Positions 22,441 through 62,457 of a stretch of 64,000 bases of DNA are shown here, piece after piece. The stretch's first letter is position 1. The number at the start of each line of letters is the position of its first letter. Under the pieces are notes generated by a model that was given only the letters and a program-made list of their open reading frames with translations, made no database searches and was not told the origin of the DNA. Both the position numbers and the translations under genes were made by a program. The DNA comes from Armatimonadia bacterium (GTDB lineage: Bacteria; Armatimonadota; Zipacnadia; Zipacnadales; UBA11051), in assembly GCA_039683575.1 (NCBI GenBank), contig JBDKRC010000235.1:4100-68099 (forward strand), given 5' to 3'.

Positions 22441-22464
22441 TCATCACACCCGAGGAGGCGGGGC

Positions 22465-33354: not shown

Positions 33355-33577
33355 CGGCTGTCGCCCGCCCCCGGGGGCCTATTCCCGAGGCGTGGTGGCG
33401 ACATCCAACCATCAGTAATGGGGATCTGACCCTTCGACCTGCATCCGGCGGTCGACCAGGACGGAATCGGTCAGCTTAGCATTGGATCCGGGCACGGGAA
33501 TGGTTGCAGAAAGGTCAGTGTTGGGATGCGCTGCGTTGGAGATCGGGGGGATGGAGGGCGACTCGGAGGCGGAAGGC

Positions 33578-37633: not shown

Positions 37634-37703
37634 GGTCCGATTCGCCTCCTCAAAGCCGCTGAAGATTGGGGGCTGAGAATGGTGATTCTCGACCCCAATG
37701 ACT

Positions 37704-37737
37704 GGGTGGGTTCGCAGACCCTGCGGGCAAGGGGGGT
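37704..37737 (-). promoter_or_regulatory. Conserved promoter/operator motif, copy 8 (minus strand), upstream of int.
   Basis: The reverse complement reads CCCCCCTTGCCCGCAGGGTCTGCGAACCCACCC. Confidence 0.55.
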
Positions 37738-37848
37738 CGGTGGATACGCATAGCCATGACCGCCAGTATTGCCGCGTCTTACAAGCTGACTGCTCACGTC
37801 TCCCGTCTCATGTCATGTCGCCGGGCGTCCAGGCCAAACCCATATAAG

Positions 37849-46299: not shown

Positions 46300-46338
46300 G
46301 CGAAGGAGATCAGCACGCACTGCCCATGGAGGAAGACT

Positions 46339-47562
46339 ATGCCAAACGAGCACGCCACCGGCACCAGACGGCTCAGGGGAGAGGCAGTCATCGCCTGCGC
46401 ATTGGCGTCCGCGTTCCTTCTGCTCTCCACCGCTCGGACGCAGGCCCAGCAGGCCGATGTCTCCAGTCTCTGGGTTAACGACAATAAGGGCGACGACAAT
46501 GCGACTGGTGACCGTGCGCATCCTCTGAAGTCGATCTCGGTTGCCTTGTCCAAGCTATCGGAACCCCTGCTGCACGGGGTGACCATCCACTGGGCCGGCG
46601 GCACGATCCTGTCCAGCGGCGGCAGGTGGATGCTTCCGGATCGCCTGCAACTTATGCTCCGCATGCTCCCCAGTGCGGGCGTGCGAATCGTCGGCGAACC
46701 CAACGAAGCGGGAGCGCTTCCGGTGCTGGCGTTCCGGGGTGATCCACTGGTTGATGTTGTCGAGGGCAACTGGTGGCTGGAAAACTTGCAGATCGGCAAC
46801 GGCAATTACGCTTGCGGTTTGAGGGCAACGGGGCCCGGGGTGGTGCGCCTCAGCAACGTGACGTTCCGCATCTATACCAACAGCGGCTGTGCCATACAGG
46901 CCCGTCGAGGCGGTCTGGTCGAACTCAGCGGCGCGATCAAGATCAATGAACACCTCCACGACCAAGCACCCCCTGACAGCTTTGCCAGTATCGTGGCGGA
47001 GTACTCCGGCATCGTCCGCTACGTCGACAGCGACCATAGTTCGCTCGATATGGGCAACGGTCAGTTGTCGACCAGCTACTATGGCGTGATCGAGCTCGGG
47101 GCCAAGGACGTGCGCGTCACAAGCTGGGGCGGGCAGAGCAACTGCGTCGCCATCAATGACAGTGGCCGCATCGACTTCCATGGCTCAACGATCCGACTGT
47201 GTGCCCGCCTCAAAGGCAACACACCTGTCGGCCTTGAGGACGATGGGCATGTGCTGGGCGAGGGAGCTCACTTGATCATCGAGGGTGACAACAACAACGC
47301 CATCGTTCTCCAGAAGAACAGCGCCTTCGGATGCACTACGGTCGAACTAAGAGGGCCTATCCGGACGGCGGTCAGTGCGATGAGCGGATCCACCTTTCAC
47401 GGCGGCTTTCTTGGCGACATCGGAAGTGTGGACGTCGACACGGGTGCCTGCGTTGCAATCGGCGAGGTCCAGGGGCGCATCACCGGGCAAGTGACTGCCA
47501 TCCGTGGCGGCACAGTCGTCCTTCCAGGAGGCAAGGTCATATTTGGTCAGGGCGGCCTCTAG
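46339..47562 (+). CDS. Secreted right-handed parallel beta-helix-like protein (407 aa).
   Basis: Signal peptide (VIACALASAFLLLSTARTQAQQ), then WVNDNKGDDNATGDRAHPLKSISVAL and Gly/Asn-rich repetitive strands. Confidence 0.4.
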   Translation: MPNEHATGTRRLRGEAVIACALASAFLLLSTARTQAQQADVSSLWVNDNKGDDNATGDRAHPLKSISVALSKLSEPLLHGVTIHWAGGTILSSGGRWMLPDRLQLMLRMLPSAGVRIVGEPNEAGALPVLAFRGDPLVDVVEGNWWLENLQIGNGNYACGLRATGPGVVRLSNVTFRIYTNSGCAIQARRGGLVELSGAIKINEHLHDQAPPDSFASIVAEYSGIVRYVDSDHSSLDMGNGQLSTSYYGVIELGAKDVRVTSWGGQSNCVAINDSGRIDFHGSTIRLCARLKGNTPVGLEDDGHVLGEGAHLIIEGDNNNAIVLQKNSAFGCTTVELRGPIRTAVSAMSGSTFHGGFLGDIGSVDVDTGACVAIGEVQGRITGQVTAIRGGTVVLPGGKVIFGQGGL

Positions 47563-47585
47563 GCGCCCGACCGGGCCTCATCGCT

Positions 47586-47818
47586 CCCCGCCGCTGCTGA
47601 TCGAGATGGGCGTACAGGACAGCGGTTTCTTCATTCAGCGCTTGCTCAAGCAACTGGCGGCGTATGACTACCTGAGGTGCATCGCAGATGCACCTCATAG
47701 CGCATCTATGACGCGGCGGGAGCCGGCGAGGACCTGCGCCAGGACATGCCCCCAGTGAGCACGCGTTTCTTAACAACAAGGTGCACCAGTTCTTCGGAGA
47801 GCACTTGTCGAGCGTCTG
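47586..47818 (+). pseudogene. Degenerate copy of the 3' end of the 45265-46299 hydrolase gene (frameshifted, with indels).
   Basis: ccgctgctgatcgagatgggcgtacaggacagcgg is nearly identical to 46108-46160. Downstream, atctatgacgcggcgggagccggcgaggacctg...aacaacaaggtgcaccagttcttcgg is a diverged homolog of the gene end. It contains the perfect palindrome GAGGTGCATC-GCA-GATGCACCTC at about 47672-47694. Confidence 0.7.
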
Positions 47819-48112
47819 ACCACTGAGCAGTCTCCCACGTCGGGGCTTGGCCGCCGGCCACGGTTCAGCACCACTACTGAGGAGCTACTTATGTCGCGGT
47901 CCGCACCCGCTGGGATGAGAATGCGCAAGATGGTGGCTGATGTCGGCGGCCGGAGCGGAGTCCGGGCGAACTAGACTCCGCCGCCTGTCAGGCGAACCTG
48001 ACACCCGCCGACTCGATGGTTTGGTGCCCGCCAAGGCGGCCCTGCCCATCTTTCCATTTCTTTGCCGTTGCCGTTACCATCCTCGCCGTTATTCTCAGAG
48101 GAGGTTCGTCAC

Positions 48113-49610
48113 CATGGATCGACTGACCGTTTCGCGCCTTCTGACCACGCTGTTGTCGATGGCGCTGCTCTCAACCGGATGGGCCCTGCCGTGTAGACAG
48201 TGCGGCGCTGGACCTGCAACCGTGGCCCAACGTCGGGCAGACTGCGGTGCGGTGGCACCGACCAAGGCCGTTGCGTACGCTGAGCCCGAGGTGGCCTGGG
48301 CTGGGCGGCCGCCGGCCGTCGGAATACGAGTGGCGCAGGCGGTTCCTGTCCCCGTCCCTCCGGTCGCACCGGTCACGCCGGCGGCCGGCCAGAAGGGTAT
48401 GCCATGGGAGCGGGCGGGCACCGCTGTGGGGCAGGAGATTGTGGGGCCCGACGGGGGCAAGATGGTGTGGGTGCCCGCCGGCAGCCTCCTGATGGGGTCA
48501 GACGAGAAGGACGCGCCTACCGATGAGAAGCCTGCACACCTGATGAAGCTCACCGGGGGCTTCTGGCTGGGGAAGTACGAAGTCACGATCGGACAGTACC
48601 GGGCCTTCTGCCAGGCGACGGAGAGGCGGTTCGGTTCCGACACCAGCGCCCCACCGGATCACCCCATGGAGGGACCGAGTTGGGATGAGGCAGCCGCTTA
48701 CTGCCAGCATTTCGGTCTTGTGCTACCCACGGAGGCGCAGTGGGAGTACGCGGCGCGAGGCGCTGACGGAAGGCGGTATCCATGGGGCAACGAGTGGGAC
48801 GCGAAGAAGTGCTGTAATGGTGCGAACAGGGGTACGGGAAGGGTTTTGACTCTGGCCGTGGGCAGCGTTGAGGCGGACCGTAGCTGGTGCGGTGCGGCAG
48901 ACATGGCTGGGAATGTCCGTGAATGGTGCGCGGACTGGTATGGCGATGCCTACTACGCGCAATCGCCTCCAGAAGACCCCAAAGGGGCCGGCAACGGCGA
49001 GTTCCGAGTCCTCCGGGGTGGTTCTGTTGAAGCCAACGGCGAGAGCTATTTCAGCGCATGGCGCCGCGGGCGGTGTCGTCCGGATATGCAGTACTTCTCC
49101 ATCGGGTTCCGTTGTGTGGCTTTGCCGTCCCAACCGATGCTCGATGGCAGTGACGTTGTGGTCGAGGGCGAGAGCTACACCAGTATTGCCCAATCCATGG
49201 CGCGGGGCAGCGATGCGGCCGCCTCCGGAGGGGCCTATGTCGGCATTCCGCTGGCTGAACCGCACGCGGCAAGAGAAGCTGCAACCCAGGACACGGGCAA
49301 CTGCGCGTATACGGTCGTGATCTCCACTGCCGGGGAGTACCGTCTGTGGGCGCGGGTATGGTGGACAGATTCCTTCGGCAACTCATTCTACCTGAGGCCG
49401 CCGGACAAGAAGATCATCGTGCTCGGCCAGGATTCGACCTTCCAGAGCTGGCACTGGGTCCGCGGCCCGTCATTGCACCTTGACGCGGGTCCAGTGACCA
49501 TCGTCGTTCAGAATCGCGAGGGTGGTACCCGGCTTGATGAGTTCCTGCTGACGACGAAGACAGACTACGTGCCGATCGGCCCCCTGTCAGAGACCGCGCA
49601 GAACAACTGA
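48113..49610 (+). CDS. Secreted FGE-sulfatase (SUMF1/formylglycine-generating-enzyme family) domain protein with a C-terminal extra domain.
   Basis: GGFWLGKYEVTIGQYRAFC...NVREWCADWY...FRVLRGGS...IGFRCV are typical of PF03781. Signal peptide after the Met at 48113 (MDRLTVSRLLTTLLSMALLSTGWA). Confidence 0.75.
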
Positions 49611-50045
49611 GTCACCGCGAGAGCAGGGCGCCTACACTATCGCGGTGCTGCAGTTGCGCCCATGTCACCGGCACAGATCGTCACCGCTGCCTCTCCGGGC
49701 GGAGTGAGCGTTGCGGGGCACAAAGACCACGCAAGCAGGCAACACGCGGCTGGCCGACTGCAGAACCGCGGAGGCCCCCAGGCTGTATTGGACCAGTTCT
49801 GAGGTCAGCGCCTGATCGCTCCCCGCCCGCTCCTGATGGAAATGAACGCGCAGGACAACCGTGTCTTCATCGAGAAATGGTTGTATAGCGTTCAATTATC
49901 TGAAGTGCCACCCGTGGAGCGCCTTGATGAGGCTATCGGCGCTGGCGGAGGTCTCTCGCAGCACCTGCACCCGGACGACCGTGTTAGCCTGACAGTAGGC
50001 GGAGTGGCCTTGTCTGCGGCACATCCAGGTCTAGGAGGAAACCAA

Positions 50046-52433
50046 GTGAAGAACGTAATTCTGGTTCTGGTCCTGACGCTGTGCTCCCTGTGTCTCGTCG
50101 CGCACGCACAGACGGTCACCCTCGATTCTCCACGAGAAGTCCGTATGTCCGAGGGCACAAAGGTGTGCGAACAGGCGGACAAACTCTTGGATGAAGGCAA
50201 GCCCTCGGAGGCGCTAAAGCTATACCAGCAGGTGCTGACCTTCCTGCCAACCTCCCCCCGGGCAAAGGCCGGGGTCGCGGAGTGCAAGGTGCTGTTGGCG
50301 GCCACGACACCCGTGGCGGGGGGCCAAGTTTCGACTGGGGCCAGCCACTATCCCACCAAATACATCCGGTTTCCTCTGCCCCCACAGGGAACTAGAACGT
50401 TGCTGTTGAGCTTCGCGGCGAATGCGGCGGGGCAGTATACGATCATGGAAGTGGATGTTGACGGGAATGGCAAGATCGAGACCGCGGAGCGGCGGCAGGG
50501 GACTGCGCGAACGTACCAGAACTGTGAGTTCAGCGGGGCCGACCTGGGAGAGTTCGCGTTGCCACCAGGACCGGCTGGAAAGGTTTCGATCACGACCAGT
50601 TGGTCTCACGCGGCGCAGCCCGGCAAGCCCGTGGTTGACCAGTTCAGCGGGAAGTGGCAGTGGCTGTCGCCTGCGGGGCAGGATACGTGGAGCTATGCCG
50701 GGACGTGGCTGGGGCGTTTCAGTCTGGACAACCTCAATCAGGGCAGCATCTATGGGGAGAAGGCTGCACTGAGGCCGTACCCGCAGTTGGAGGGGGTGGC
50801 GGCAGGACAAGCGATAGTGCGGGTGCAAGGCGTGAGTGTTCCGTGGGGAACCGCGACGAACTGGCTTAAGAACGGCGCGCAGTGCGAAATGAAGCTGAGA
50901 GTGACGGATGAGAAGGGGACTGCAGTCCATCAGGGGGCTCTGCAGGCTGGGTCAAACGGGCTTTTTGAGACGACGGTGACGCTGCCCGGAGGAAAGTATG
51001 TGGCAGAGGTTCGCACCGATACGGGGCCGATAGCGGGCGAGGTCGCCGGGACGGTTCCGTTTGAGGTGAAGGCTTCGCTGGCGGCGACACAGAGGACGGG
51101 GCTCAAGGGACCTGTCATGAAGGTTGGCCGGCGGATCTTCAAGGACGACGCCGAGGGCACTGACAACTACAGCCTCATGTCGTGGGTTCAGGATTTCAGG
51201 GAATGCTGCGCCAGCGACTATGTGTTGCCCGAAAAGAGCATGCTGGTGGTGCGGCCACTGGATAATGTACAACTGACGGATGTGCAGTGCATCGCTCTGG
51301 CGGAGGAGCTGGCAACCGTGCAGGCGCCGGTGGGGGTGCAGATGTATGGACAGAAGGAGTTGACCATCAAGGGAATAACGGCACTGGCGAAGGTGCCGAA
51401 CCTGCGTTCGCTGGCCTTGATGCGATTTGACAACCTGGACGACAAGGCCTGCGAGACGATTGCCACGGCAAAAGAGCTGCGGTTCCTGTGGCTGAACCAG
51501 AATGCGAAGATCACGGACCAGGGAATCCAGTACCTGGGCGCTCTGCCTGAGCTGGGCTATCTCAATATTGGGGATACGCCCGTTGTTGGGTCGGGTCTGA
51601 AGGCGCTGTCAGGCTGCAATAAGCTCGACCGGATCTATGTCGGGTCGGCGGCTTTCAAGGACGCCGCGCCTTTGGGGGCCTTTACGTCGGTGCGGGAGTT
51701 AGCCCTGTGGGGGGCGAAGGACACGACGGGCCTGGAGGAACTGCGTAACCTGCAGCGGCTGAAGTGGCTCAGCGTTCATGGCATTGACTGCCCTCCGGAC
51801 AAGCTCAAGTTCCTCTCCGAGCTTCCTGAGTTGATGAACCTCTCGATCCAGGGCAACCAGTTGCTGACGGATATTAGTACCACGCCTATCCCCCAGATTA
51901 CACGTCTGAAATACCTCAGTCTGCGAGACTGCCGTAACCTGGCTGCGGGGCTAAACTCTCTGGGAGGGCTGCGAGCCCTCGACAGCCTGGATCTGCAGGG
52001 TTGCCGTTCGCTTGACGGGACGGGCCTGAAAGTGCTCACCGGTGCGCCGATATTCTGGCTGGACCTCAGCGGGTGCGAAAGCATGAAGGACGCCGGACTG
52101 AGCGAGGTGGGCAGCCTGACGCAGGTTAACCAACTCGAGGCCGACGGGACAGGGCTGGGCGACGGGGCGGTGGCGCAGTGGCAGGGCTTGGCGAGTATGA
52201 CGCGGCTTGACGCCTATAACACACCGCTTACGGATGCAGGAATGGAGGCCTTGGCGCGGCTCCCCGTACGCTACCTGGGCCTGAACGGGTGCAAGGCCAT
52301 TACCGACAAGGGATTAATGGCCCTGACGCGCTCGGACAAGCTGCAGTCGGTGGGGGTAGGCGGTACGGCAGTGACAGACGCAGGGATAGCAGCGGCGCGG
52401 CAGGCCAAGCCGCAACTGCAGATCAGCAAATAA
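50046..52433 (+). CDS. Secreted leucine-rich-repeat protein with the conserved N-terminal module (paralog 1, about 795 aa).
   Basis: AGGAGG lies 8 nt before GTG. Signal peptide VKNVILVLVLTLCSLCLVAHAQT, then SPREVRMSEGTKVCEQADKLLDEGKPSEALKLYQQVLTFLPTSPRAKAGV. The C-terminal half has LRRs (LRSLALMRFDNL..., LRFLWLNQNAKITDQGIQYLGALPELGYLNIGDT...). Confidence 0.6.
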   Translation: MKNVILVLVLTLCSLCLVAHAQTVTLDSPREVRMSEGTKVCEQADKLLDEGKPSEALKLYQQVLTFLPTSPRAKAGVAECKVLLAATTPVAGGQVSTGASHYPTKYIRFPLPPQGTRTLLLSFAANAAGQYTIMEVDVDGNGKIETAERRQGTARTYQNCEFSGADLGEFALPPGPAGKVSITTSWSHAAQPGKPVVDQFSGKWQWLSPAGQDTWSYAGTWLGRFSLDNLNQGSIYGEKAALRPYPQLEGVAAGQAIVRVQGVSVPWGTATNWLKNGAQCEMKLRVTDEKGTAVHQGALQAGSNGLFETTVTLPGGKYVAEVRTDTGPIAGEVAGTVPFEVKASLAATQRTGLKGPVMKVGRRIFKDDAEGTDNYSLMSWVQDFRECCASDYVLPEKSMLVVRPLDNVQLTDVQCIALAEELATVQAPVGVQMYGQKELTIKGITALAKVPNLRSLALMRFDNLDDKACETIATAKELRFLWLNQNAKITDQGIQYLGALPELGYLNIGDTPVVGSGLKALSGCNKLDRIYVGSAAFKDAAPLGAFTSVRELALWGAKDTTGLEELRNLQRLKWLSVHGIDCPPDKLKFLSELPELMNLSIQGNQLLTDISTTPIPQITRLKYLSLRDCRNLAAGLNSLGGLRALDSLDLQGCRSLDGTGLKVLTGAPIFWLDLSGCESMKDAGLSEVGSLTQVNQLEADGTGLGDGAVAQWQGLASMTRLDAYNTPLTDAGMEALARLPVRYLGLNGCKAITDKGLMALTRSDKLQSVGVGGTAVTDAGIAAARQAKPQLQISK

Positions 52434-52452
52434 CTGTGGGGAGAAGCCTGAG

Positions 52453-54075
52453 ATGAAGAAGATCGTGCTTCTGCTGCTCGTGGGGATACTTGGTGTCATT
52501 GTGACTGCCCAAGCACAGACGGCGACTGTTGATTCCCCGCGTGAAGTGCGCATCGCGGAAGGCACCAAGCTTTGCGACCAGGCGGACAAGCTACTGGCGG
52601 AGGGGAAGGTGCAGGACGCTTTGAAGCTGTACCAGGCGGCGCTGAAGATCCTGCCGACTTCGCCGCGGGCGAAGGCCGGAGTGGAGAAGGCGAAGGGGGC
52701 GGCGGCAGCCCCGCAAGCCACGGCACAGCCGACGCCACCAGCCGCGCCCCCCCTCCCGCCACTGCCTCAGGAAGATGTGCCCGTGCCGCCGCAGACACAG
52801 GGTGCCTGCCCTCCGGAGGCGCTGGCGTGGCCAACGGTGATGGCGACCAAGCTGCAGGACCAGATTCCGTGGAAGGCATTCTACTGCAGTGTGGGACAGT
52901 ATGGCGGCGGGCTGGAGCGGGCCGCCCAGGCCGGACTGCGCGTGTGGGGTAGCTGGACCAATACAGCGATGTGGCTGCAACAGCCGCTTTCGGACCAATG
53001 GCTGCTGACGGTGGAAGTGGGATACCCTAAGGAAGACAAGAGCGGTCAGGCGGCCATCTGGCTCAATGGGCCAGGCCACGGGACCTCGGTCAAGGCGGGT
53101 TACTGCATCCAGGTGGGCCGCACCGAGGGAGCCATGTACGGACCAGGGACGACGGGACGCTTCACTGTCGCCCCGCCGTTCGCTGCCGAGAGCTATCACA
53201 TTGTCAACGTGCTCCGCAAGGGGCCGCAGTTCAGCTTATGGCTGGATGGACAGGAGATCGGCAGCTTTGAGGATACCGCGTCACTGTCCGGGCCGCTGTA
53301 CTCCCGTATTGGCATCGGGGCACTCGGCGGAAGCGAGGTATACTACCGGAACCTGCGGATCCAGGCAGTGCCACCGACTCCGGCTGCCCTCACTGAGATG
53401 AGCAAGATGCCAGCCGCACCCGCGCCGACCACGCCGCCCGCTCCGAACGGTGAGTTGCTGGCCGAAGTGAAGATGGATGGCCAGAATCCGGACTGGCACA
53501 TCTCGATGCCGCAGTCCACGTTCTGGAGGGGAGACCGGGTCATTCTCTGTGGCACATCGCCACGACTGCTCTGGCAGAAGGGGACAACCCAGGACTTCGC
53601 TTTCGAAGCAGACGTCCAGTACGTGCCCAGAAAGTACCCGGACCCACTGATGGTGCCGGAGGCGCAGCCAGACCGTTACTTGGCGACAGGCGCGGCGGAA
53701 GCGGAGTTGTTCATGTTCGTAAGGTTCGCTTCCGTGGTACCGATTGACCCTAAGGACGAATACCAGCCGCCGCCCGGCGCAGGCTGGCACTTCAGTTTCA
53801 ACCAGCAGGACCACCGTCTGGTGTGGAGAGATGCGGAGGGACGCCAGGGCGAGGCAACCAGCGTCCCCGCCTTCTGCCCCTTCGGCGGCAACAGATACAC
53901 GGTTCGAGTGGAGGTGCGACACGATCTCATTAGAGCCTATGTGAATGGGGCGCTGGTGACGGAGACGCCGCTGGGGGATCACTCGTGGCCGGCTAACCAG
54001 AAGGCTTTCGCGGCTGTCGGTAATTTGTTTGAAGGTGTCACCGTCTACGGCGCCCGCATCTATGCTCTGCAGTGA
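52453..54075 (+). CDS. Secreted DUF1080 (3-keto-disaccharide-hydrolase-like) two-domain protein with the conserved N-terminal module (paralog 2, 540 aa).
   Basis: Signal peptide MKKIVLLLLVGILGVIVTAQAQT and the SPREVRIAEGTKLCDQADKLLAEGK...LPTSPRAKAGV module. DUF1080-like endings VYYRNLRIQA and TVYGARIYALQ. Confidence 0.55.
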   Translation: MKKIVLLLLVGILGVIVTAQAQTATVDSPREVRIAEGTKLCDQADKLLAEGKVQDALKLYQAALKILPTSPRAKAGVEKAKGAAAAPQATAQPTPPAAPPLPPLPQEDVPVPPQTQGACPPEALAWPTVMATKLQDQIPWKAFYCSVGQYGGGLERAAQAGLRVWGSWTNTAMWLQQPLSDQWLLTVEVGYPKEDKSGQAAIWLNGPGHGTSVKAGYCIQVGRTEGAMYGPGTTGRFTVAPPFAAESYHIVNVLRKGPQFSLWLDGQEIGSFEDTASLSGPLYSRIGIGALGGSEVYYRNLRIQAVPPTPAALTEMSKMPAAPAPTTPPAPNGELLAEVKMDGQNPDWHISMPQSTFWRGDRVILCGTSPRLLWQKGTTQDFAFEADVQYVPRKYPDPLMVPEAQPDRYLATGAAEAELFMFVRFASVVPIDPKDEYQPPPGAGWHFSFNQQDHRLVWRDAEGRQGEATSVPAFCPFGGNRYTVRVEVRHDLIRAYVNGALVTETPLGDHSWPANQKAFAAVGNLFEGVTVYGARIYALQ

Positions 54076-54134
54076 CAATCGCAGGCGCACGCAGCAGCTG
54101 GTAGTGCAGAATGCTAGACTTGGGAGGCAGCCAG

Positions 54135-55850
54135 ATGAGGAAACCAGTTCCGTTTCTGATGTTGGCGATCTGGTTGGGATGTCTCGTCGCATACGCGCAG
54201 ACAGTGACCATTGATTCGCCACGCGAGGTGCGCATTGCCGAGGGTACTAAGCTTTGCGATCAGGCTGATGGGCTGGTCGCGGAGCGGAAGTATGCGGAGG
54301 CTCTGTCACTATATCGTGACGTACTGAAGATTCTGCCTACTTCGCCGCGGGCGAAGGGCGGGGTGGCGGCTTGTGAGGGGAAGTTGAAGGAGGCGGCGGC
54401 CGCGCCGAAGGCGGTCGTGGAGACGCCAAAGCCAGCGCCGGTGGCACAGGCGGCACCGCCAGCGGCGCCGCTGGCAGTGCCGGTGGCAATGGCGTCGCCG
54501 ACGGTGCAGTTAGGGCGACGGTTATTGCCTCCCAATCCCGATGACTATGAAGCATACAGCATGTTCGGCGAGATGCTTGACTGGACTAAGTCCACCGTCA
54601 GCCAGTATAAGAAACTTCCCGAGGGCAACATGCTGATAGTCACGGCCCATGGCTGGGACCCGGGAGGCCAGTTGGAGGACGGACAACTGGTGACGCTGGT
54701 GCAGGAGTTGCGCGAAATCAGGTGCCCGGTGGTGCTGACGCTGCTGAAGCAGACGAAACTGACTACGGCGGGATATGCGCAGTTGGCGGGATTGCCGAAC
54801 GTCGTGGCCCTGGCGGTGCAACAGTGCGCGACGGTGGATGATGAGGTTCTGGCGAGTTTCGCCAAAATACCGGCGCTGCGTTCGCTGATGCTCAATGAGT
54901 GCCACAAGGTGACTGATGTGGGGGTCAAGCGGCTGGCGGCGCTGCAGGATCTGCAGTATCTGAATGTGGCCAAGTGTGAGTTGGTTACGAGTGAGGGCGT
55001 GAAGGCGCTCAGCGCGTGTCCGAAGCTGGCGTCGCTGAACTTGTGGGGGACGCAGGGGTTTGCTGACGTTACGGCACTGACTGGGCTGACGTCACTGCGG
55101 GCGCTGGTGATGTTTTCAAAGCTGGACTCCAAGACACTGCCCGAGCTTGGGAAGCTGAAGAAGCTGCAGACACTAAACATGTCGGGGAACAATTTCGAGC
55201 GAGATTACAGCTTCCTCGCAGCTTTGCCGGAGTTGGAGACGCTGACGATAGCTGACGATCATATGCTCAGCGATATCGGCAAGAGCGATCTTGCGGGATG
55301 CAGGAACCTTAAGAGCCTGTCGCTGCCGAACTGCGGAGGGTTGACAGGCAGCGTGGCGCCCCTGGCGGCTCTTACCCAACTGGAGTCACTTAGTCTGAGC
55401 TACTGTCAGGAATTCACTGGAGAGGGGCTGCGGGAGTTAGCGGTGCTGCCGAAGCTGGAGGCACTTAGCATAACTGAGGCGTCGAAAGTCGGCAGTCCAG
55501 CGCTGGGCGAGATTGCCGCGCTGACGCAGTTGAAGTCGCTCAACCTGTGGAACTGCGACCTCTCTGACGCCGGGTTGGCGCAGTTGGCATCCCTGAAGGG
55601 ACTGCAGAAGGTCGGTTTGGCGGGCAAAGCAATAACGGACGTCACTTTGCAGTTGCTGGGAGGATTACCTGCTCTAGAGGAGGTAAGCCTGCGCGATACC
55701 ATAGAAGTCACTGACGCGGGGCTACTGGCACTAGCGCAGGCACCCGCAATGAAAAGGGTAGCCATACGGTACAGCAAAGTGACGCCAGCAGGCATCGGAG
55801 CGGCTAAGGCGGCCAAGCCCGGCCTTGTAACCGAAGTGATAGCGCCGTAG
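54135..55850 (+). CDS. Secreted leucine-rich-repeat protein with the conserved N-terminal module (paralog 3, about 572 aa).
   Basis: GGAGG lies 8 nt before the ATG. MRKPVPFLMLAIWLGCLVAYAQT, then the SPREVRIAEGTKLCDQADGLVAERK...LPTSPRAKGGV module. LRRs (LQYLNVAKCELVTSEGVKALSACPKLASLNLWGT...). Confidence 0.6.
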   Translation: MRKPVPFLMLAIWLGCLVAYAQTVTIDSPREVRIAEGTKLCDQADGLVAERKYAEALSLYRDVLKILPTSPRAKGGVAACEGKLKEAAAAPKAVVETPKPAPVAQAAPPAAPLAVPVAMASPTVQLGRRLLPPNPDDYEAYSMFGEMLDWTKSTVSQYKKLPEGNMLIVTAHGWDPGGQLEDGQLVTLVQELREIRCPVVLTLLKQTKLTTAGYAQLAGLPNVVALAVQQCATVDDEVLASFAKIPALRSLMLNECHKVTDVGVKRLAALQDLQYLNVAKCELVTSEGVKALSACPKLASLNLWGTQGFADVTALTGLTSLRALVMFSKLDSKTLPELGKLKKLQTLNMSGNNFERDYSFLAALPELETLTIADDHMLSDIGKSDLAGCRNLKSLSLPNCGGLTGSVAPLAALTQLESLSLSYCQEFTGEGLRELAVLPKLEALSITEASKVGSPALGEIAALTQLKSLNLWNCDLSDAGLAQLASLKGLQKVGLAGKAITDVTLQLLGGLPALEEVSLRDTIEVTDAGLLALAQAPAMKRVAIRYSKVTPAGIGAAKAAKPGLVTEVIAP

Positions 55851-55879
55851 TAGGTGAACTAACAGCAGGGCCTGGGGAT

Positions 55880-56270
55880 GCCGGCGGGCAGCGGTAACTC
55901 TAAAAGTGACCATGGCTGGTACGCCTTCAGCCCTGACAGCAAGAGGCTGATCGGGGGACAGCGGTGCGGACAGAAGTGGCGGGTAGTGGTAGAGATCCAG
56001 CCGGGGCCGGAGTACGACGCCATCGGCGTCCTGGGCGTCCTGGGCGGCAGCAACCCCTCCAAATCGCCAGCGTGTTTCAGCCCCGACAGCCGCCGCGTGG
56101 CGTATGCCGAGCAGCACGGGGCAAGTGGTTCGTCGTGCTCGACGGCGCTCCCGGCCCCGCGTACGATGACTGCTTCGGCCCGGTGTTTCCGCCGAACGGC
56201 AAGCTGGATTACTTGGCTGTAGAGGACGGCGTGCTGTATCGTGTCTCAGCGCTACCCCACGGCGCCTAGC
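55880..56270 (+). pseudogene. Frameshifted fragment of a PD40/WD40-like beta-propeller repeat protein.
   Basis: Two frames carry repeat units (WYAFSPDSKRL / CFSPDSRRVAYAEQHG in one frame; KWFVVLDGAPGPAYDDCFGPVFPPNGKLDYLAVEDG in another) that match each other (KWRVVVEIQPGPEYDAIG). Confidence 0.35.
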
Positions 56271-56304
56271 GCGCCGGGAGATCACATCGAAGGAGCGAAC
56301 TGCA

Positions 56305-57942
56305 ATGAGCAGGGCTACCATCTACCTGGTCATGGCCGTATGGTTAGCGGTTATGGTCGGTGTTCACGCGCAGACAGTGACGCCGACTTCCCCCCGTGAA
56401 GTCAGAATCGCCGAGGGGATCAAACTGTGCGATCAGGCGGACAAGCTACTGGCGGAGGGGAAGGCTCAGGACGCTTTGAAGCTGTACCAGTCGGCGCTAA
56501 AGATCCTGCCGACGTCACCGCGCGCGAAGGCCGGGGTAGAGAAGGCGAAGGCCCCCCCGGCGGCGCCCGTAGCCGTTCCAGCGCCACCGGCCGCCGAAAC
56601 CGTGCCAGTGCTGGAGCCGCCCAAGCCACCGACCCTCCCGCTGCCGCAGGATGAGTTTGCTGTTCCACCGGAGACACAGCAAGCCTGCCCCGCCGAGGCC
56701 TTGGCGTGGCCGACTGTAATGGCGACGACGTTGCAGGGGAGGATTCCCTGGCACGCCTTCTACATCTACGCCGGGCAATATGGCGGCAGCGTCAAGCCAG
56801 AGGGGCAGGCGGGACTGAGGGTCTGGGGCTCTTGGACCGACACCGCGCTGTGGCTGCGCCAGCCGCTTTCGGAATACTGGCTGCTCACAACTGAGGTGTG
56901 CGTCAAGAAAGACGACGGCATCTGTTTCCCGTGCTTTTGGCTGAGTGGCCCGGGATACGGCAATGCCCTCGGAATGCCCTACTCAGTGTCAATGACCTGC
57001 TCCGAAGGGTCTGTCACCGGCGGCGGGCGCACGGGCAAGTTCCGCATGCCCGAGGGCGTGAAAGAGGGAAGCTACTACACTCTCAACCTGCTGCGACAAG
57101 GGTCGCACTTTTCGATGTGGGTGAATGGTCAGCAGATTGGTGAGTTCGATGATGCGACTCTGACTGGCCCCCAATACAGCCATATAGCGATCGGCGCTCA
57201 GGGTGCCCCGGAAAAGGGCGTCTTCTTCCGGAATCTCCGCATCCAGGCGCTACCCCTGACGGCCGAACAGGCTGTGTCACTGGCGACGCCGCCGCTGTTG
57301 CCGGAAGCGACGACACCGCCCGCCCCCAACAAAAAGCTCCTGCAGGAACTTAGCCTCGACGGGCGCAGTGAAGGCTGGACATTTCCGCAGCCTCAGAACA
57401 TCTATTGGAAGCATGACAAGGCTGTGCTTGTGGATTCAGCTGCACGCCTGCTGTGGCAGACGGGGCTGACAGAGGATTTTGCTCTCGAAGTGGATGCCCA
57501 ATACCTCCCGAAGGTCTTCCCTACTCCGCTGATGCTCCCGGACAACCTGCCTGACGCCTACCTGCTTACCGGTGCCGCCGAAGGTGAACTGCAGTTGCAC
57601 GTGGGCTTGGGTGATGTAGCACCCACCGGTATGGACGGAGCAGACTTGCCCTCGCGGTGGCTCTTTATCTTCAACTCGTCCGGCAACCGGCTGGTGTGGA
57701 CGGGTGCCAATAAACAGGAGCAGAAAGCTTCCTCCCCGTACTTTGGCCCCACCAATGGCAACAGATACACGCTACGAATGGAGTTCCGGCGTAACGCCAT
57801 ACGCGCCTTCATCAACGGCCGACTAATGTTCGAGTCCGCAACCACCGATCACCCGTGGCTCCCGGGAACCAAGGCTTTCACGGGCCTGGATCAGGTCTAC
57901 GATGGCATCGTCATCCACGGCATGCGGATCTACAGTCTGTAG
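56305..57942 (+). CDS. Secreted DUF1080-like two-domain protein with the conserved N-terminal module (paralog 4, 545 aa).
   Basis: AAGGAG RBS. MSRATIYLVMAVWLAVMVGVHAQT plus the module. Collinear with paralog 2 (VFFRNLRIQALP ... HGMRIYSL). Confidence 0.55.
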   Translation: MSRATIYLVMAVWLAVMVGVHAQTVTPTSPREVRIAEGIKLCDQADKLLAEGKAQDALKLYQSALKILPTSPRAKAGVEKAKAPPAAPVAVPAPPAAETVPVLEPPKPPTLPLPQDEFAVPPETQQACPAEALAWPTVMATTLQGRIPWHAFYIYAGQYGGSVKPEGQAGLRVWGSWTDTALWLRQPLSEYWLLTTEVCVKKDDGICFPCFWLSGPGYGNALGMPYSVSMTCSEGSVTGGGRTGKFRMPEGVKEGSYYTLNLLRQGSHFSMWVNGQQIGEFDDATLTGPQYSHIAIGAQGAPEKGVFFRNLRIQALPLTAEQAVSLATPPLLPEATTPPAPNKKLLQELSLDGRSEGWTFPQPQNIYWKHDKAVLVDSAARLLWQTGLTEDFALEVDAQYLPKVFPTPLMLPDNLPDAYLLTGAAEGELQLHVGLGDVAPTGMDGADLPSRWLFIFNSSGNRLVWTGANKQEQKASSPYFGPTNGNRYTLRMEFRRNAIRAFINGRLMFESATTDHPWLPGTKAFTGLDQVYDGIVIHGMRIYSL

Positions 57943-57996
57943 ATCAGGCAGAAAGCCATTGCCGTCGCTGCCACAACGTACAGAGGGAGAACACCG

Positions 57997-58242
57997 ATGA
58001 CGAAGGCGACGCTCTTCTTAAGTGTCATACTCTTGCTCGGTGCGACTGTCGTTAGTTCCGCTGAGACCGTCACCGCGACATCGCCGCGCGAAGTGCGCAT
58101 CGCGGAGGGAACGAAGCTGTGCGACCAGGCCGACAAGCTGCTGGCGGAGGCGCAGGCGCAAGAAGCTATGAAACTGTACCAGCAGGTCCTGACCTTCCTG
58201 CCAACGTCCCCGCGGGCGAAGGCGGGTCGGTCAACCTGCTAG
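57997..58242 (+). pseudogene. Truncated fifth paralog of the N-terminal module family (81 aa), ended by an in-frame TAG that aligns with a Glu codon of the paralogs.
   Basis: MTKATLFLSVILLLGATVVSSAETVTATSPREVRIAEGTKLCDQADKLLAEAQAQEAMKLYQQVLTFLPTSPRAKAGRSTC*. GCG AAG GCG GGT CGG TCA ACC TGC TAG GAG AAA CTG AAG aligns with the paralog-3 sequence GCG AAG GGC GGG GTG GCG GCT TGT GAG GGG AAG TTG AAG (TAG versus GAG). The same frame continues into the hydrolase 3'-end fragment. Confidence 0.6.
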
Positions 58243-58371
58243 GAGAAACTGAAGCAACAGCCGACGGCGTGTACCGCCGCAGCCAGGCCGGCCTTTGTGC
58301 TGCCGCCTTCAACCAGCATTTTCGAGGCTGCCATAGAAGGCAACTTGACGTCCTTGCGCGACTTCCTGGAC

Positions 58372-58584
58372 ATAGCGGGTCTCATCGCCCCGCGCCCACT
58401 CCTCATCGAGATGGGCGTGCAGGACAGCGGGTTCTTCATCGAAGAGCAACTGACAGCCTTCTCGCACCTCAAGCGCATCTACGACGCCGCCGGCGCGGGC
58501 GAGGACCTCTGGAAGGACATGCACCCGGGGGAGCATGCGTTTGCCAACAACAAGGCGCATGAGTTCTTTGGGAAGTACCTGTAG
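58372..58584 (+). repeat. Copy of the 3' end of the hydrolase gene (about 93% aa identity over the last 70 codons), in frame with the truncated paralog upstream.
   Basis: DIAGLIAPRPLLIEMGVQDSGFFIEEQLTAFSHLKRIYDAAGAGEDLWKDMHPGEHAFANNKAHEFFGKYL* matches DIAGLIAPRPLLIEMGVQDSGFFIEEQLKAFDHLKRIYDAAGAGEDLWQDMHPGEHAFANNKAHEFFGKYL*. Confidence 0.8.
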
Positions 58585-58872
58585 AGCATCTCATGCGATG
58601 ACGGCTGTCTCATAGGCGCTGACAACGAACATGCTCTCGAGTAGAGAGGCCCATGCGCTTTCTCGGCCCACGCCTCCGTTGCTTCCTGGTGCCGAAGCCT
58701 CACCTCACAGGGCTGTGGCCACCCCGGCGGAGAGGGGGGAGTGCTGGTCGTGCCTGTCCACGCATCCCTCGATCCGTTCGATGGCCGCCTTCGTGGCGGG
58801 GAGACCCGCGCCTGACGTCCTATTGCGTGATGTCGTACGGGCGAAGCCATGCTTCATAATGGAGGATTTGCG

Positions 58873-60441
58873 ATGAAACCTGCCCTGCTCCACTATCTCC
58901 GCGTCGCCATGATCCTACTCTGCGCCGGCTGTCGGACGGGGCCGCTTGGCGCACAGTCCTCGCCCAGACTGGTTGAGGTGTATCTTTCGGACATCGGGGC
59001 CGCATCGCTGCCGGCCGAACCATCACGGTATCACGAGAATAGCAGTTTCTACGGGCGTCAGATGACTATCAACGGCAAAGAGTACGCCCGGGGAATCGGG
59101 ACTCATGCGCCGTCGAAGATCACGTATGACCTCGAAGGTCTGGGTTTCACCCGGTTCCGGGGGGTGGTGGGAGTTGACCAGGAGACGGCTGAGGAGCCCG
59201 GGGGCAGTTGTGAGTTCGTCCTGATCGGAGATGGTAACGAGATATTCAATAGTGGCGTGGTCAGGAAGGTCGACGTGGGCGTAACCGTGGACGTTGACGT
59301 GCGTGGTATCACGGAACTGCAGTTGGTCGTGACGGACGCGGACGATGGCGATACGTGTGATCACGCAGACTGGGCTGATGCGCGTCTTCTGAGGCCCGCC
59401 ACCGCCACTCCGCCTCTGCCGCCAAAGGGCCATCAGCCTCCGGTCAGCAACCCACCGAGTTCTCCCCGCCTGCTCACCGATACGCTGCGGGAACTCAAGG
59501 TCCTGGTCGTGTGCATCGATCCCCCCGTCAATTCTGCCGACGGGAAGCGGCTGCACGAGGTGGCCCGCTGGAATGATCCCCGGCAGCTTGCGGACCAGTA
59601 CATCGCCGCTCTTCGTGGGTGCAGCAAGGGCTATCTTCGCTACCGTATCGTTGACTGGGTAGACTGCGACTACTTCCTCCTACAGGCAGATGGTTTTCGC
59701 TACCCAACCGCCGAAGCCTACCTTACCGCCCTCCGCGGCCAAGCCATTCACCGGCCTGATGTTGCCGGTCTTCGTAGGTTCATCACAGACGGCGTCACCT
59801 ACCATTTCAACAATCCCCGAAGCATCGCGCAGCGCGTGGCGGACGGCGAGATAGATGAGGTCTTCGTGTTCAACCCATGGGGTGCCGGCGGGTTCGGCGA
59901 GGCCAACATGGCCGGTCCAGCCCCATTTGGCATCAATGGGTCCATCCGCATCGTGCCGGAAACCGGACGCAACATCGCCGTCATGGAGTTCAATTATGAG
60001 AGAGGCGTTGACTGCATGCTTGAGAATTTCTGCCACCGCACTGAACGCAGCCTAAGTCGCGCATATGGGCTTTTTGGTCGGCCGGCGCCGCAAGGAACGC
60101 TTGACAACTGGCAACGCTTCAGTGCCTACGACAAGATCATGCCAGGGAATGCAGCCGTAGGGAACTGTCACTTTGCCCCCAATAGCGCATCAGACTATGA
60201 CTGGGGGAACAAACGAATGGTGCCAAGTTCATGCGACGACTGGCTATTGAACTGGCCGGACTTGCGGGGTATCCGGCGGGAGGTGGACTGCTCCGAGTGG
60301 GGCGGCGGCGACATGCGCCTGCATCACATCTGGTGGCTGAACCATCTGCCGTGTGCACGCGGCACAAACCCTGACGGTTTGGAGAACAACTGGTGGAAAT
60401 ACGTGGTCGATCTCGATGGTTATGCCGCCCACCCACGGTGA
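58873..60441 (+). CDS. Lipoprotein with an N-terminal NPCBM/NEW2 carbohydrate-binding-like domain and an uncharacterised C-terminal domain (about 522 aa).
   Basis: GGAGG lies 8 nt before the ATG. Lipobox LLCAGC. NPCBM hallmarks: ...YARGIGTHAPSKITYDLEGLGFTRFRGVVGVDQE...CEFVLIGDGNEIFNSGVV...LQLVVTDADDGDTCDHADWADARLL. Confidence 0.7.
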   Translation: MKPALLHYLRVAMILLCAGCRTGPLGAQSSPRLVEVYLSDIGAASLPAEPSRYHENSSFYGRQMTINGKEYARGIGTHAPSKITYDLEGLGFTRFRGVVGVDQETAEEPGGSCEFVLIGDGNEIFNSGVVRKVDVGVTVDVDVRGITELQLVVTDADDGDTCDHADWADARLLRPATATPPLPPKGHQPPVSNPPSSPRLLTDTLRELKVLVVCIDPPVNSADGKRLHEVARWNDPRQLADQYIAALRGCSKGYLRYRIVDWVDCDYFLLQADGFRYPTAEAYLTALRGQAIHRPDVAGLRRFITDGVTYHFNNPRSIAQRVADGEIDEVFVFNPWGAGGFGEANMAGPAPFGINGSIRIVPETGRNIAVMEFNYERGVDCMLENFCHRTERSLSRAYGLFGRPAPQGTLDNWQRFSAYDKIMPGNAAVGNCHFAPNSASDYDWGNKRMVPSSCDDWLLNWPDLRGIRREVDCSEWGGGDMRLHHIWWLNHLPCARGTNPDGLENNWWKYVVDLDGYAAHPR

Positions 60442-60717
60442 TCTGGCATTGGAGGGGCCGCAGCGTCAGCGCCCGAGGTGGGATCACCGCTAGGTCACGA
60501 CCCGCTGCGTTACGCAAGGCGCACGGGGCTGCGCTTCGGTTGCGGAACCGGGCCGAGTGTAGGCTGCCAGGATCTTGTTGCTGCGGCCGAGGACCATATT
60601 GGCGGGTTCTTGGCCCACACACTATCTGCCGGGCGCCAATCGAAGGCGGATGCAGCGCCAACACAGTGGCGTCGGCTATTGTCGTTAGGTGACTAGACAG
60701 TACCCAACATCTACAAG

Positions 60718-60949
60718 TACTTTGACGTCCCAGACATTGCCGGGCTGATCGCGCCACGGCCGCTGCTGATCGAGGCCGGTGTCCAGGATAGCGGGTTCTT
60801 CATTGAGGAGCAGTTGGCGGCCTTTGACCACCTCCAGCGCATTTATGACGCGGCTGGGGTTGGCGAGGACCTGTGGCAGGACGTGCATCCGGGGGAGCAT
60901 GCGTTCGCCAACAATAAGGCGCATGAGTTCTTTGGGAAGTATCTGTAGA
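60718..60949 (+). repeat. Most diverged copy of the hydrolase 3' end (about 77 codons, ending KYL*), abutting the convergent SWIM gene. Candidate original attB-side remnant.
   Basis: YKYFDVPDIAGLIAPRPLLIEAGVQDSGFFIEEQLAAFDHLQRIYDAAGVGEDLWQDVHPGEHAFANNKAHEFFGKYL*. Confidence 0.75.
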
Positions 60950-60955: not shown

Positions 60956-61873
60956 TCAGCGGCGCGTCTTCGCTGAGGGGACGTCTTCGGCGGAGCCTTC
61001 GGGCAGGAAGACCTGCATCCCGGTCTCGGACGCGCGTGGGTAGATCGCCTCAAGGGCTGCCTGCAGCGGTGTCTCGCCCCGCCAGAAGGGAAAGTTGCCC
61101 AGCCGCCGGGGCAGGGCGGCGGGCACCGTCGGGACGCGGACCTCTCCGAACAGGTCGTCCGGCAGCGCCTCGCCGTGCCAGAAGTCTGGAGGGCTCGTCG
61201 GCAGCGGCTCTTCAGGCAGGACCGGCGCCGGTTCGGGTTCCTCACAAACACCGAGACCGGCCGGGCCGATCAGTTCGACGAGCCCGTCGCGCTCCATCCC
61301 GCGCAGTCTGAAAATCAGGAAGGGATCACGGTCGAACTCCTCGCCCAACAGATAGTAGACGGCGGCGATGTGTTTGCAGGGGTTGGACCAGTCTGGACAC
61401 GAGCACTGGGTCTGCAGATCGCTGACCGGGTTGGGAAACAGAGACAGCCCGGCCTCGGCGAAGACGGTCTCAATGTCCTGGGGCATCTCTCCGGCCAGCA
61501 GCCGCGCGGCGAAGATGGCCTGGCTGGCCAGGCGTTCGCCCACTTGTGCCCACTCCTCATGCGACAGCGCCTTGACGGTCACCACCACCTTGTAGGGCTT
61601 CCTACGCGAGCCCTGCACTTCGGCGGTCACGAGTCCGCGGTCAATGTCAACGCTGAGCACCTGGCCTCCGCGCGCATAGCGCTTGCCGCGACCCAAGCGT
61701 GCGCCCAGGTCAAAGCTCTCCAGGACCGCGATCCACCGCTTGGCCCACCAGTTCCTGGCGAAGGAGCCTCGCTGGGCATGAGCCTTGATCCCGCCGTCAG
61801 CAGCCAGCGGCTTGGACTCTGGAAACTTCGGGTAATGGTCATCCCAGTGCGAACGCATGGCAATTCTCCTCAA
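60956..61873 (-). CDS. SWIM zinc-finger protein (SNF2-helicase partner).
   Basis: SWIM CxCxnCxH motif CSCPDWSNPCKHIAAVYYLL. Confidence 0.75.
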   Translation of the reverse strand: MRRIAMRSHWDDHYPKFPESKPLAADGGIKAHAQRGSFARNWWAKRWIAVLESFDLGARLGRGKRYARGGQVLSVDIDRGLVTAEVQGSRRKPYKVVVTVKALSHEEWAQVGERLASQAIFAARLLAGEMPQDIETVFAEAGLSLFPNPVSDLQTQCSCPDWSNPCKHIAAVYYLLGEEFDRDPFLIFRLRGMERDGLVELIGPAGLGVCEEPEPAPVLPEEPLPTSPPDFWHGEALPDDLFGEVRVPTVPAALPRRLGNFPFWRGETPLQAALEAIYPRASETGMQVFLPEGSAEDVPSAKTRR

Positions 61874-62457
61874 GACGAAGCCGGCTGACCGCCCGCCTGT
61901 CGCTCGAACAATATGATGGACCGGTCAGCCGCCAGCGCCTCGGGTCTGAGCGTGAACTCTGCGTGCTGCCGCAGATGCGGTGGGTCGCCACACCTGAGCA
62001 CCCAGCATTCGGGCTTGCCCGGCCTCGGACAGTCATTGAACAGGCACAGGCGACCCCGATAACGGTCCGTACCCGGCTCCATGAGGAAGACGTCAACCAT
62101 GTGCTGAGCGATGCTGTGGTTGCCGGCTTCCAGGTACCGGCTGACGGCCACGTTCCGTGCCCGTTGCAGCGCCTTCAGGCAGGTTAGGTCGCTGACCCAC
62201 ACGGCCAGGTCCAAGTCGTCACAGGGGCGAGTGACCTCCCCAAAGTGGCGGAGGCGGCGGGCGTATGGAGGCTGCATGACTGGCGGGGCCGCCACCGAGC
62301 CGAACAGCAAGATCCGCTCCACAGCGCCGATCTGCGCCATAGCTCTCGCGACCCAGTCGGCAACCTCCCGCAGGCGGCGGTTGCGCTCTCGGTTGTACCG
62401 GTCTTCCGCCGCGATCTGCGCGACCAGGTTGGAATCCGCTCCTCGCGCGCCCCGCAT
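61870..62457 (-). CDS. Minimal nucleotidyltransferase (Pol-beta superfamily) domain protein.
   Basis: G[S/G] motif ERILLFGSVAAP, then the acidic pair DLDLAV. Lies between the SNF2 and SWIM genes with 4-nt overlaps. Confidence 0.45.
   Translation of the reverse strand: MRGARGADSNLVAQIAAEDRYNRERNRRLREVADWVARAMAQIGAVERILLFGSVAAPPVMQPPYARRLRHFGEVTRPCDDLDLAVWVSDLTCLKALQRARNVAVSRYLEAGNHSIAQHMVDVFLMEPGTDRYRGRLCLFNDCPRPGKPECWVLRCGDPPHLRQHAEFTLRPEALAADRSIILFERQAGGQPASS

Follow-up and report, generated by a model that had tools for sequence, protein, structure and literature searches.

The window analyzed here is a stretch of 64,000 nucleotides from contig JBDKRC010000235.1 (positions 4,100 to 68,099), part of a metagenome-assembled genome (MAG) of an Armatimonadia bacterium, and our subject is a group of five neighboring genes, P1 to P5, which occupy positions 50046–58242 of its plus strand. 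A first-pass annotation of this DNA had taken them for tandem paralogs that share a signal peptide and a common module, referred to here as the head. The open reading frames (ORFs), the alignment of the five products and a tblastn search all bear out that description. With the module as query, the search of the whole window returned exactly five copies at E-values of 1e-24 to 1e-38, and the next match had an E-value of 0.25.

All five genes are read from the plus strand. P1 (50046–52433) encodes a signal peptide, a tetratricopeptide repeat (TPR) head (50106–50288), a short linker, a β-rich region of about 300 residues and an array of leucine-rich repeats (LRR). Its likely start is a GTG codon with GGAGG 8 nt upstream, and its ORF is open from 49836. 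A degenerate fragment of a hydrolase gene, fragment 3 of the array described below, is in frame with P1 across 49836–50045; the longest P1 ORF (865 aa) begins inside this fragment, so gene callers could mis-annotate the start of P1. P2 (52453–54075) continues from its signal peptide and head (52513–52695) through an Ala/Pro linker into a DUF1080 domain and a second concanavalin A (ConA)-like domain. P3 (54135–55850, ORF open from 54111) joins its signal peptide and head (54195–54377) to an LRR solenoid by way of a linker of about 65 residues that is modeled with low confidence. P4 (56305–57942) carries a signal peptide, a head (56368–56550), an Ala/Pro linker and DUF1080/ConA-like domains. P5 (57997–58242) consists of a signal peptide and the head alone (58060–58239), 81 aa in all, and ends at a TAG stop at 58240–58242. 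P2, P3 and P5 correspond to GenBank locus tags ABFE08_16410, ABFE08_16415 and ABFE08_16430 (P0001), respectively. A sixth head-bearing paralog, ABFE08_10750 (P0005), lies on another contig of the same MAG and is of the DUF1080 type.

Besides P5, the paralog array contains other decayed material. Between P3 and P4 there is a frameshifted remnant of a gene with PD40/WD40-like repeats (55878–56269, plus strand), which has no start codon and shows one and the same repeat motif in two reading frames; its PD40 match (E = 0.0018) is below the cut-off. A PADLOC scan of P1–P5 for defense systems gave zero matches, and a phage-family scan of the same genes gave one, to a generic LRR PHROG. Promoter and terminator scans yielded counts no higher than chance, and tRNA and Rfam scans of the entire window found no element.

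The module begins after a signal peptide of about 21 residues and spans 61 alignment columns, 31 of which are invariant, with pairwise identities of 68–90%. As these columns lie beyond the signal peptide, the shared region is not simply a leader of fewer than 25 residues. The cleavage sites of P1–P5, read by eye from the sequences, have the form AxA↓Q/E of type I signal peptidase and lack a lipobox cysteine. A family-specific segment, SPREVRIAEG, precedes the TPR as the beginning of its long first helix, and the head also contains the motif LPTSPRAKxG. The cysteine in helix 1 (KLCDQAD) is invariant. A second cysteine in helix 3 (AGVxxC) is found in P1, P3, P5 and most homologs and has been lost from P2, P4 and P0005; a disulfide between helices 1 and 3 is plausible in the exported head.

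Structurally, the module is one canonical TPR with a capping helix ("1.5 TPR"). Pfam TPR_19 (PF14559) matches the heads of P1–P4 with E-values of 6e-4 to 2e-3 and 18.7–20.5 bits, relative to a gathering cut-off of 25. Comparison of the module profile with PDB sequences returned designed consensus TPR proteins and the TPRs of OGT and AspH, and the core that matches the designed consensus reads laegkaaeAlklYqevLkfLPtSPRA. The AlphaFold2 (AF2) model of the head has a mean predicted local distance difference test (pLDDT) score of 83 and places helices at residues 9–29, 33–46 and 51–66 of the mature module. Every top match of a Foldseek search of the PDB was a TPR protein, with root-mean-square deviations of 0.6–1.0 Å over 41–51 columns and probabilities of 0.99–1.00. 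Together these results confirm the TPR-like nature that had been read from the sequence. The accompanying suggestion of a PEP-CTERM-like sorting signal found no support, as the head is a folded TPR unit and no sorting family in Pfam or NCBIfam matches it. P1–P5 had no match to PEP-CTERM, the type IX secretion system C-terminal domain (T9SS CTD), a lipobox or a prepilin leader in scans of these two databases, which do not include the head as a family of its own. The one NCBIfam signal is local: in four of the five proteins the head aligns to positions 27–93 of NF042912, the Amuc_1098 family of PilQ-type secretins, at 15–22 bits and E-values of 3e-5 to 4e-3; the cut-off of that family is 750 bits and the head proteins lack a secretin domain, which places them outside it.

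Behind the head, the C-terminal domains are of the LRR type in P1 and P3 and of the DUF1080 type in P2 and P4, as had been proposed, and Pfam matches above cut-off support both assignments. LRR_4 scores 82.9 bits in P3 and 37.5 bits in P1 (cut-off 27), and PF06439 (3keto-disac_hyd/DUF1080) scores 32.4 bits in P2 and 31.7 bits in P4 (cut-off 26.8). The PF06439 match covers the C-terminal half of the model only, and any enzymatic activity of the domain is putative. A second ConA-like region in P2 and P4 matches Laminin_G_3 at a sub-threshold 21–23 bits, and the additional β-rich region of P1 has no Pfam match. P1 and P3 are 32% identical over 472 aa of their LRR part. P2 and P4 are 51% identical over their full length, and their modules are 89–90% identical.

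An Ala/Pro-rich linker had been ascribed to the family as a whole. This description holds for the sequences of P2, P3 and P4 but not for P1, whose linker is only weakly Ala/Pro-rich. The AF2 model of full-length P3, built from a 5-sequence alignment, has head helices at residues 29–49, 53–66 and 71–88 (pLDDT 73–89), a stretch from 90 to 156 with pLDDT 25–47 and no secondary structure, and an LRR region at 160–571 (pLDDT 80–94) with about 16 strand/helix repeats. The model suggests that P3 is a head on a long flexible tether, the low pLDDT being a hint of disorder rather than proof of it.

An exhaustive hidden Markov model (HMM) search of 1.84 billion (1.84e9) representative proteins gave 975 matches at E ≤ 1e-3. 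Most of these are ordinary multi-TPR proteins that match the core alone (profile positions ~20–55); a single match to the complete module, specific flanks included, is seen in about 20 metagenomic proteins. The head is joined to WD40 propellers in P0010, to ankyrin repeats and a β-lactamase in P0023, and to a PQQ propeller and an FGE-sulfatase domain in P0028. Two tandem heads precede WD40 and caspase domains in P0015/P0271 (Capsulimonadaceae), and the head of P0122 is likewise duplicated in tandem. In the large head proteins P0014 and P0040 nothing beyond a sub-threshold match to DUF4350 was seen, and P0033 is a lipoprotein-like head protein of 194 aa. Wherever the N-terminus of a protein with an N-terminal head was read, a signal peptide or lipobox precedes the head. 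All available source names of head proteins are Armatimonadota. A metagenome scan also revealed two tandem genes on JAANMV010000182.1 (locus L002, 7338–13189), each encoding a signal peptide, a head and long WD40 arrays, so tandem head-bearing paralogs occur on another contig too.

Two further searches added little. Two sets of module patterns detected no relative in the GTDB species-representative genomes, a result limited by the patterns and weak as evidence of absence, and a word-indexed search of proteins, run first with a single module and later with a profile of 21 sequences, yielded P5 itself only and is uninformative. The surroundings of two head genes elsewhere resemble mobile-element DNA. 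The gene for P0040 (locus L020, 780–17306) adjoins a phage-type integrase, ArdC, two TraG/TrwB coupling proteins and a Prok-E2/ThiF/JAB protein, and that for P0033 (locus L018, 1–16585) lies among many small ORFs without assigned function and a helix-turn-helix gene.

P5 had been described as a recent pseudogene, inactivated by a GAG-to-TAG change, whose frame runs into a hydrolase fragment across a rearrangement junction. Its TAG (58240–58242) does align with a sense codon, which is GAG in P3 and AAG in P1, P2 and P4. The frame also continues as described, open from 58243 to the stop of the hydrolase fragment at 58584, a run of 114 codons. Positions 58243–58359 (plus strand, in frame) comprise a leftover of the P5 linker (EKLKQQPTA..., compare GKLKEAAAAPKA in P3) and about 30 codons without clear origin. 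Hydrolase homology begins at 58359/58360 when judged against two different alleles, and corresponds to hydrolase codons 271–344. With a linker remnant on one side and hydrolase codons on the other, the boundary is indeed a rearrangement junction, at which the whole C-terminal domain of P5 was lost. The description of the TAG as the inactivating change does not survive this finding. Since the gene ends at the junction about 40 codons further on and its whole C-terminal domain is gone, the TAG is not demonstrably inactivating; it is one of at least two lesions in P5, and its precursor codon could equally be AAG. The term "recent" is likewise unsupported, as synonymous sites are saturated. To judge from its sequence, P5 is probably a truncated copy of an LRR-type ancestor; it keeps the second cysteine and an EKLK motif that resembles the GKLK of P3.

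At 81 aa compared with 540–795 aa for its paralogs, P5 combines a premature end with domain loss, as is expected of a pseudogene. It is possible, though on balance unlikely, that P5 instead works as a secreted head-only protein of 59 aa, for example as a competitor, cap or regulator of head binding, a role that would be compatible with the other readings discussed here. P5 retains a Shine-Dalgarno sequence (GAGGGAG), an ATG, the signal peptide and every one of the 31 invariant residues, it is listed in GenBank as a coding sequence, and short head proteins occur elsewhere (P0033, and P0077 at 139 aa). The ratio of nonsynonymous to synonymous substitution rates (dN/dS) between P5 and the other heads is 0.09–0.22, but with dS saturated its recent history is invisible, and the low ratio mostly reflects ancient history and is silent on the time since truncation. 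Moreover, P5 ends at an obvious rearrangement junction, with remnants of its linker after the stop, and protein searches turned up no orthologue of the 81-aa form.

We consider it probable that P1–P5 represent an Armatimonadota-specific expansion of exported proteins built on one plan, with a docking head, an old re-assortment of heads and cargo domains, and a junction that truncated P5. The plan comprises a Sec-type signal peptide, a head of about 60 residues, a long and probably flexible linker, and a variable ligand-binding domain. For the head itself we tentatively propose, at a little under an even chance, a common protein–protein contact that docks or assembles the cargo domains at one envelope site, with the linker acting as a tether between docked head and cargo. 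The contact could be made by stacking with the TPR of a partner or with another head. A 1.5-TPR unit is too small for the classical TPR peptide groove, which makes stacking the likeliest mode of contact, and the tandem heads in P0015/P0271 and P0122 show that heads can stack like ordinary TPRs. P5 would have lost everything beyond its linker when its segment joined a displaced 3′ fragment of the hydrolase gene, and the TAG would end the resulting chimeric frame.

Several results weigh against this proposal. The scores of TPR_19, TPR_2 and TPR_11 are all under the Pfam gathering cut-offs, as expected for a single repeat, and, owing to the small size of the model (67 residues), the Foldseek E-values of 0.2–0.8 fall short of significance when taken by themselves. 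The disulfide staple cannot be essential, given that P2, P4 and P0005 lack the second cysteine. The head is C-terminal in P0051, P0077 and P0127, some of which are possibly partial ORFs, and such copies fit poorly with a strictly N-terminal leader. Finally, no conserved neighbor gene accompanies head-bearing genes in the other loci examined.

The last of these points would suit a head that acts in cis, either as an aid to export or folding or as an N-terminal cap or pro-domain without which large repeat domains would not stay soluble once exported by Sec. TPR units are common as intramolecular scaffolds, and the head is always near the signal-peptide cleavage site. We nevertheless regard action in cis as unlikely. 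About 65 low-confidence linker residues between head and cargo argue against an intramolecular cap, one head serves cargos as structurally unrelated as LRR, ConA-like, WD40, ankyrin and β-lactamase domains, and the C-terminal copies speak against it as well. More doubtful still is a head that serves as a dedicated address tag, by which an envelope receptor or an export machine specific to the Armatimonadota would recognize proteins for docking or sorting. Any cargo, mobile-DNA arrivals included, would then be displayed at the same site. The cassette array described below could itself be an integron-like platform for gene-end-targeted acquisition. This idea draws on the mobile contexts of several head genes, which lie in integrase-less cassettes beside a large serine integrase here and beside an integrase, ArdC and TraG elsewhere.

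Comparison of the copies bears on both the docking proposal and the history of the locus. In all ten module pairs dS is 0.7–2.5, near saturation, and dN/dS is 0.08–0.22; nucleotide identity is 67–83%, and protein identity in the same comparison is 70–89%. Within each protein, conservation is highest in the head, at 68–90% identity compared with 32% (P1/P3) and 51% (P2/P4) for the rest. These values identify the modules as old duplicates under selection and show that the head has been kept by purifying selection since those duplications. That the heads are alike merely through recent duplication or gene conversion among neighbors, and not through functional constraint, is highly improbable. The genes stand in tandem on one strand and the P2 and P4 modules have an exact stretch of 31 nt in common, but exact stretches in the other pairs do not exceed 19 nt and the nucleotide identities are too low; the dS values rule out either process as the source of the similarity.

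In a neighbor-joining tree of the heads, the six heads of the MAG form one clade that splits by C-terminal type, with P2, P4 and P0005 (DUF1080) on one side and P1, P5 and P3 on the other; the tree was built from 61 columns without bootstrap, which also counts against the history drawn from it. Combined with the dS values, this grouping points to a single ancient re-assortment of heads and cargos, with duplications afterwards. The earlier notion of modular domain shuffling thus stands in part, as the head is found on unrelated domains elsewhere, but recent swapping within the locus is contradicted by modules that group by C-terminal type.

The P5 junction is one of four junctions between a cassette and a hydrolase 3′ fragment downstream of an intact gene. 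That gene (45265–46299, plus strand) encodes an α/β hydrolase of 344 aa (Abhydrolase_7/DLH type) with 1352 homologs, mostly of exactly 344 aa, and thus belongs to a very conserved family. Its 3′ end is the repeated unit. Four extra copies of its last 160–260 nt follow downstream on the same strand, and the repeats end at the stop codon. Fragment 2 (47574–47804) is frameshifted, contains an insertion and follows the gene for a 407-aa secreted protein (46339–47562). Fragment 3 (49810–49973), degenerate and starting from about codon 277, marks the left border of the P1–P5 segment. Fragment 4 (58360–58584) comprises codons 271–344 in the same frame as P5, and fragment 5 (60697–60948) comprises codons 263–344 and follows a gene for an NPCBM-domain protein (58849–60441). 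The blocks between hydrolase copies hold the 407-aa protein, an FGE-sulfatase protein, P1–P5 and the NPCBM protein, and neither the ORF list nor a Pfam scan contains a recombinase gene within 46300–60700. The left borders of the fragments fall at hydrolase nt 787, 811, ~827 and ~830, within 43 nt of one another. Translation through the P5 TAG, by read-through or recoding, into a fusion of head, linker and hydrolase tail is the least probable reading of all and can be dismissed despite the 114 open codons. P3, P4, the gene for the 407-aa protein and the hydrolase fragment all terminate normally at TAG, and an in-frame fit has a one-in-three chance. Located downstream of GLSQGG (by eye, the presumed nucleophile-Ser site), the fragment would lack the nucleophile and would not be functional alone. 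Searches for a recoding signal and for Rfam elements were negative.

Fragment 4 and the resident hydrolase end share 93% amino acid and 86% nucleotide identity (dN/dS 0.05, dS 0.74), and comparisons among the resident end, fragment 4 and fragment 5 give dN/dS values of 0.04–0.08 at dS 0.7–1.6. Fragment 5 has the same protein sequence (100% identity) as the C-terminus encoded by P0153, another naturally occurring allele, and is 92% identical to it in nucleotides; for the resident end, the nearest allele is yet another one, P0152. As the differences are almost wholly synonymous and fragment 5 equals the P0153 end, fragments 4 and 5 evolved as working gene ends in different lineages. In-situ tandem duplication followed by neutral decay is ruled out for these two fragments, whose differences are overwhelmingly synonymous. 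Comparison of the resident hydrolase with four alleles revealed a mosaic pattern with no clear single recombination breakpoint, and the longest exact matches between neighboring hydrolase copies measure 10–26 nt and lie at differing positions. Mis-assembly of the MAG contig is unlikely, because exact repeats do not exceed 35 nt and the P5 junction lies outside repeated sequence.

The array looks like a stack of cassettes at a gene-end insertion hot spot. It may have arisen by serial site-specific insertion with later loss of the integrase modules, by Campbell-type insertion of circles that carried a hydrolase end, or by homology-facilitated illegitimate recombination. On another metagenomic contig (L012, ENA ERZ27249281 k141_1079675, 2263–4488) the P0153 allele of the hydrolase is followed by rsgA, the last 65 nt of the hydrolase and a terminator-like hairpin, a gene-end duplication of the same kind with a different left border. 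Eight loci of hydrolase homologs with 76–85% identity had no 3′ fragments within 10 kb. Immediately upstream of the array, a large serine integrase gene (43654–45117, plus strand; Resolvase and Recombinase domains; phrog_95, E = 3e-83) ends 147 nt before the intact hydrolase gene; the hydrolase locus seems to border on a mobile element. Further upstream, all on the minus strand, are genes for a tyrosine integrase (36664–37797), a C5 DNA methylase (34658–35764) and an IstB-like ATPase (30748–32025). On the other side, the last hydrolase fragment is directly flanked by minus-strand genes for a SWIM zinc-finger protein, a 195-aa ORF and a SNF2-family helicase (60956–63996).

Compared with TPR domains such as CTPR and TPR_19, the head has the same 34-residue helix-turn-helix signature (G, A, Y, A and P positions), the same fold and a capping third helix. 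Peptide-binding TPR domains usually contain three or more repeats. The head, by contrast, has one repeat and a cap, together with its N-terminal SPREVRIAEG extension, an invariant cysteine in helix A and the LPTSPRAKxG motif, and it serves as the common N-terminal unit behind the signal peptide of unrelated exported proteins. Cellulosomes, with their dockerin/cohesin pairs, and S-layer homology (SLH) domains offer other cases in which a small conserved module and a flexible linker are found on many unrelated domains within one lineage. Relative to these, the head differs in its TPR fold, which is neither the EF-hand-like fold of dockerin nor that of SLH, in its N-terminal position and in that any cohesin-like receptor for it is hypothetical. 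Amuc_1098 of Akkermansia muciniphila is an outer-membrane protein annotated as a type IV pilus secretin (PMC4960237; NCBIfam name). Secretins of its family (NF042912) have a TPR-like stretch right after the signal peptide, as the head proteins do; this likeness may be no more than that of one TPR to another, and we treat it as a lead and not as functional homology.

For the array, the closest documented analogue is the insertion of e14 and phage 21 into the 3′ end of Escherichia coli icd, where a displaced 163-bp fragment, icdC, remains (PMC6379469; PMC13626634). In both cases a conserved gene remains whole because incoming DNA provides its new 3′ end, and the displaced end is left downstream, and the copies in the array likewise differ mainly at synonymous sites; the dN/dS values of 0.04–0.08 indicate displaced ends that diverged as functional coding sequence. 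Unlike e14/icd, the array has four stacked fragments and blocks without integrases, and in place of an identical att core its left borders vary by up to 43 nt. The array also differs from an integron. A coding gene supplies its separators, which are 3′ fragments of 160–260 nt, a search of the array for inverted repeats revealed no family of them, and the adjacent recombinase is a large serine integrase and not an IntI tyrosine recombinase.

No new principle is involved here, since heads made of TPRs, the re-assortment of domains and insertion at gene ends all have precedents, so the value of the locus is descriptive and hypothesis-generating. What is new is a lineage-restricted variant in which exported multidomain proteins have a TPR unit as their common head. 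Studies of the Armatimonadota are few, and the organization of their cell envelope is poorly understood. One conserved head on exported cargos as different as LRR, lectin-like, WD40, caspase, ankyrin and enzyme domains would indicate that these proteins dock or assemble at a common site, and the pattern G..C..A..L...A...Y...L..LP.SPRA..G...C provides a sequence handle with which exported head proteins can be listed in genomes. The array in turn illustrates gene gain, with blocks of secreted-protein genes stacked behind the hydrolase, each followed by a displaced 3′ end that evolved as coding sequence in another lineage, and the truncation of P5 would be a by-product.

The remainder of the window contains several further features. 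The minus strand of 5458–16734 has defense-island-like content. A 1553-aa protein with NERD and protein kinase domains heads the gene set, followed by a class V aminotransferase/cysteine desulfurase, a phosphoadenosine phosphosulfate (PAPS) reductase, a 1142-aa BrxC/D-like ATPase and DUF4007; the set resembles an Ssp/Dnd-type DNA phosphorothioation cluster. On the plus strand, 17637–22452 holds five copies of a motif of about 40 nt, CCGAnCCCCCTTGCCCACGGGnGGCGTGAGCCCACCCGTG, at spacings of 860–1450 nt. Four of the five precede the Shine-Dalgarno sequence and start codon of consecutive plus-strand ORFs by 15–35 nt. Of the five, just one forms a hairpin of clear stability (z = -3.6), so the motif may act at the DNA level or as a promoter motif and not as an RNA structure. 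A 21-nt tandem repeat (TCACCCCGTTTTGGGAATC-like) with at least five units occupies 32741–32883, inside a minus-strand ORF at 32040–33404. Lastly, twelve copies of a 69-nt periodic repeat span 28916–30500 inside a long ORF, which could be 28131–30908 on the minus strand or 28320–31031 on the plus strand; the product of the minus-strand ORF has a weak match to DUF6745.

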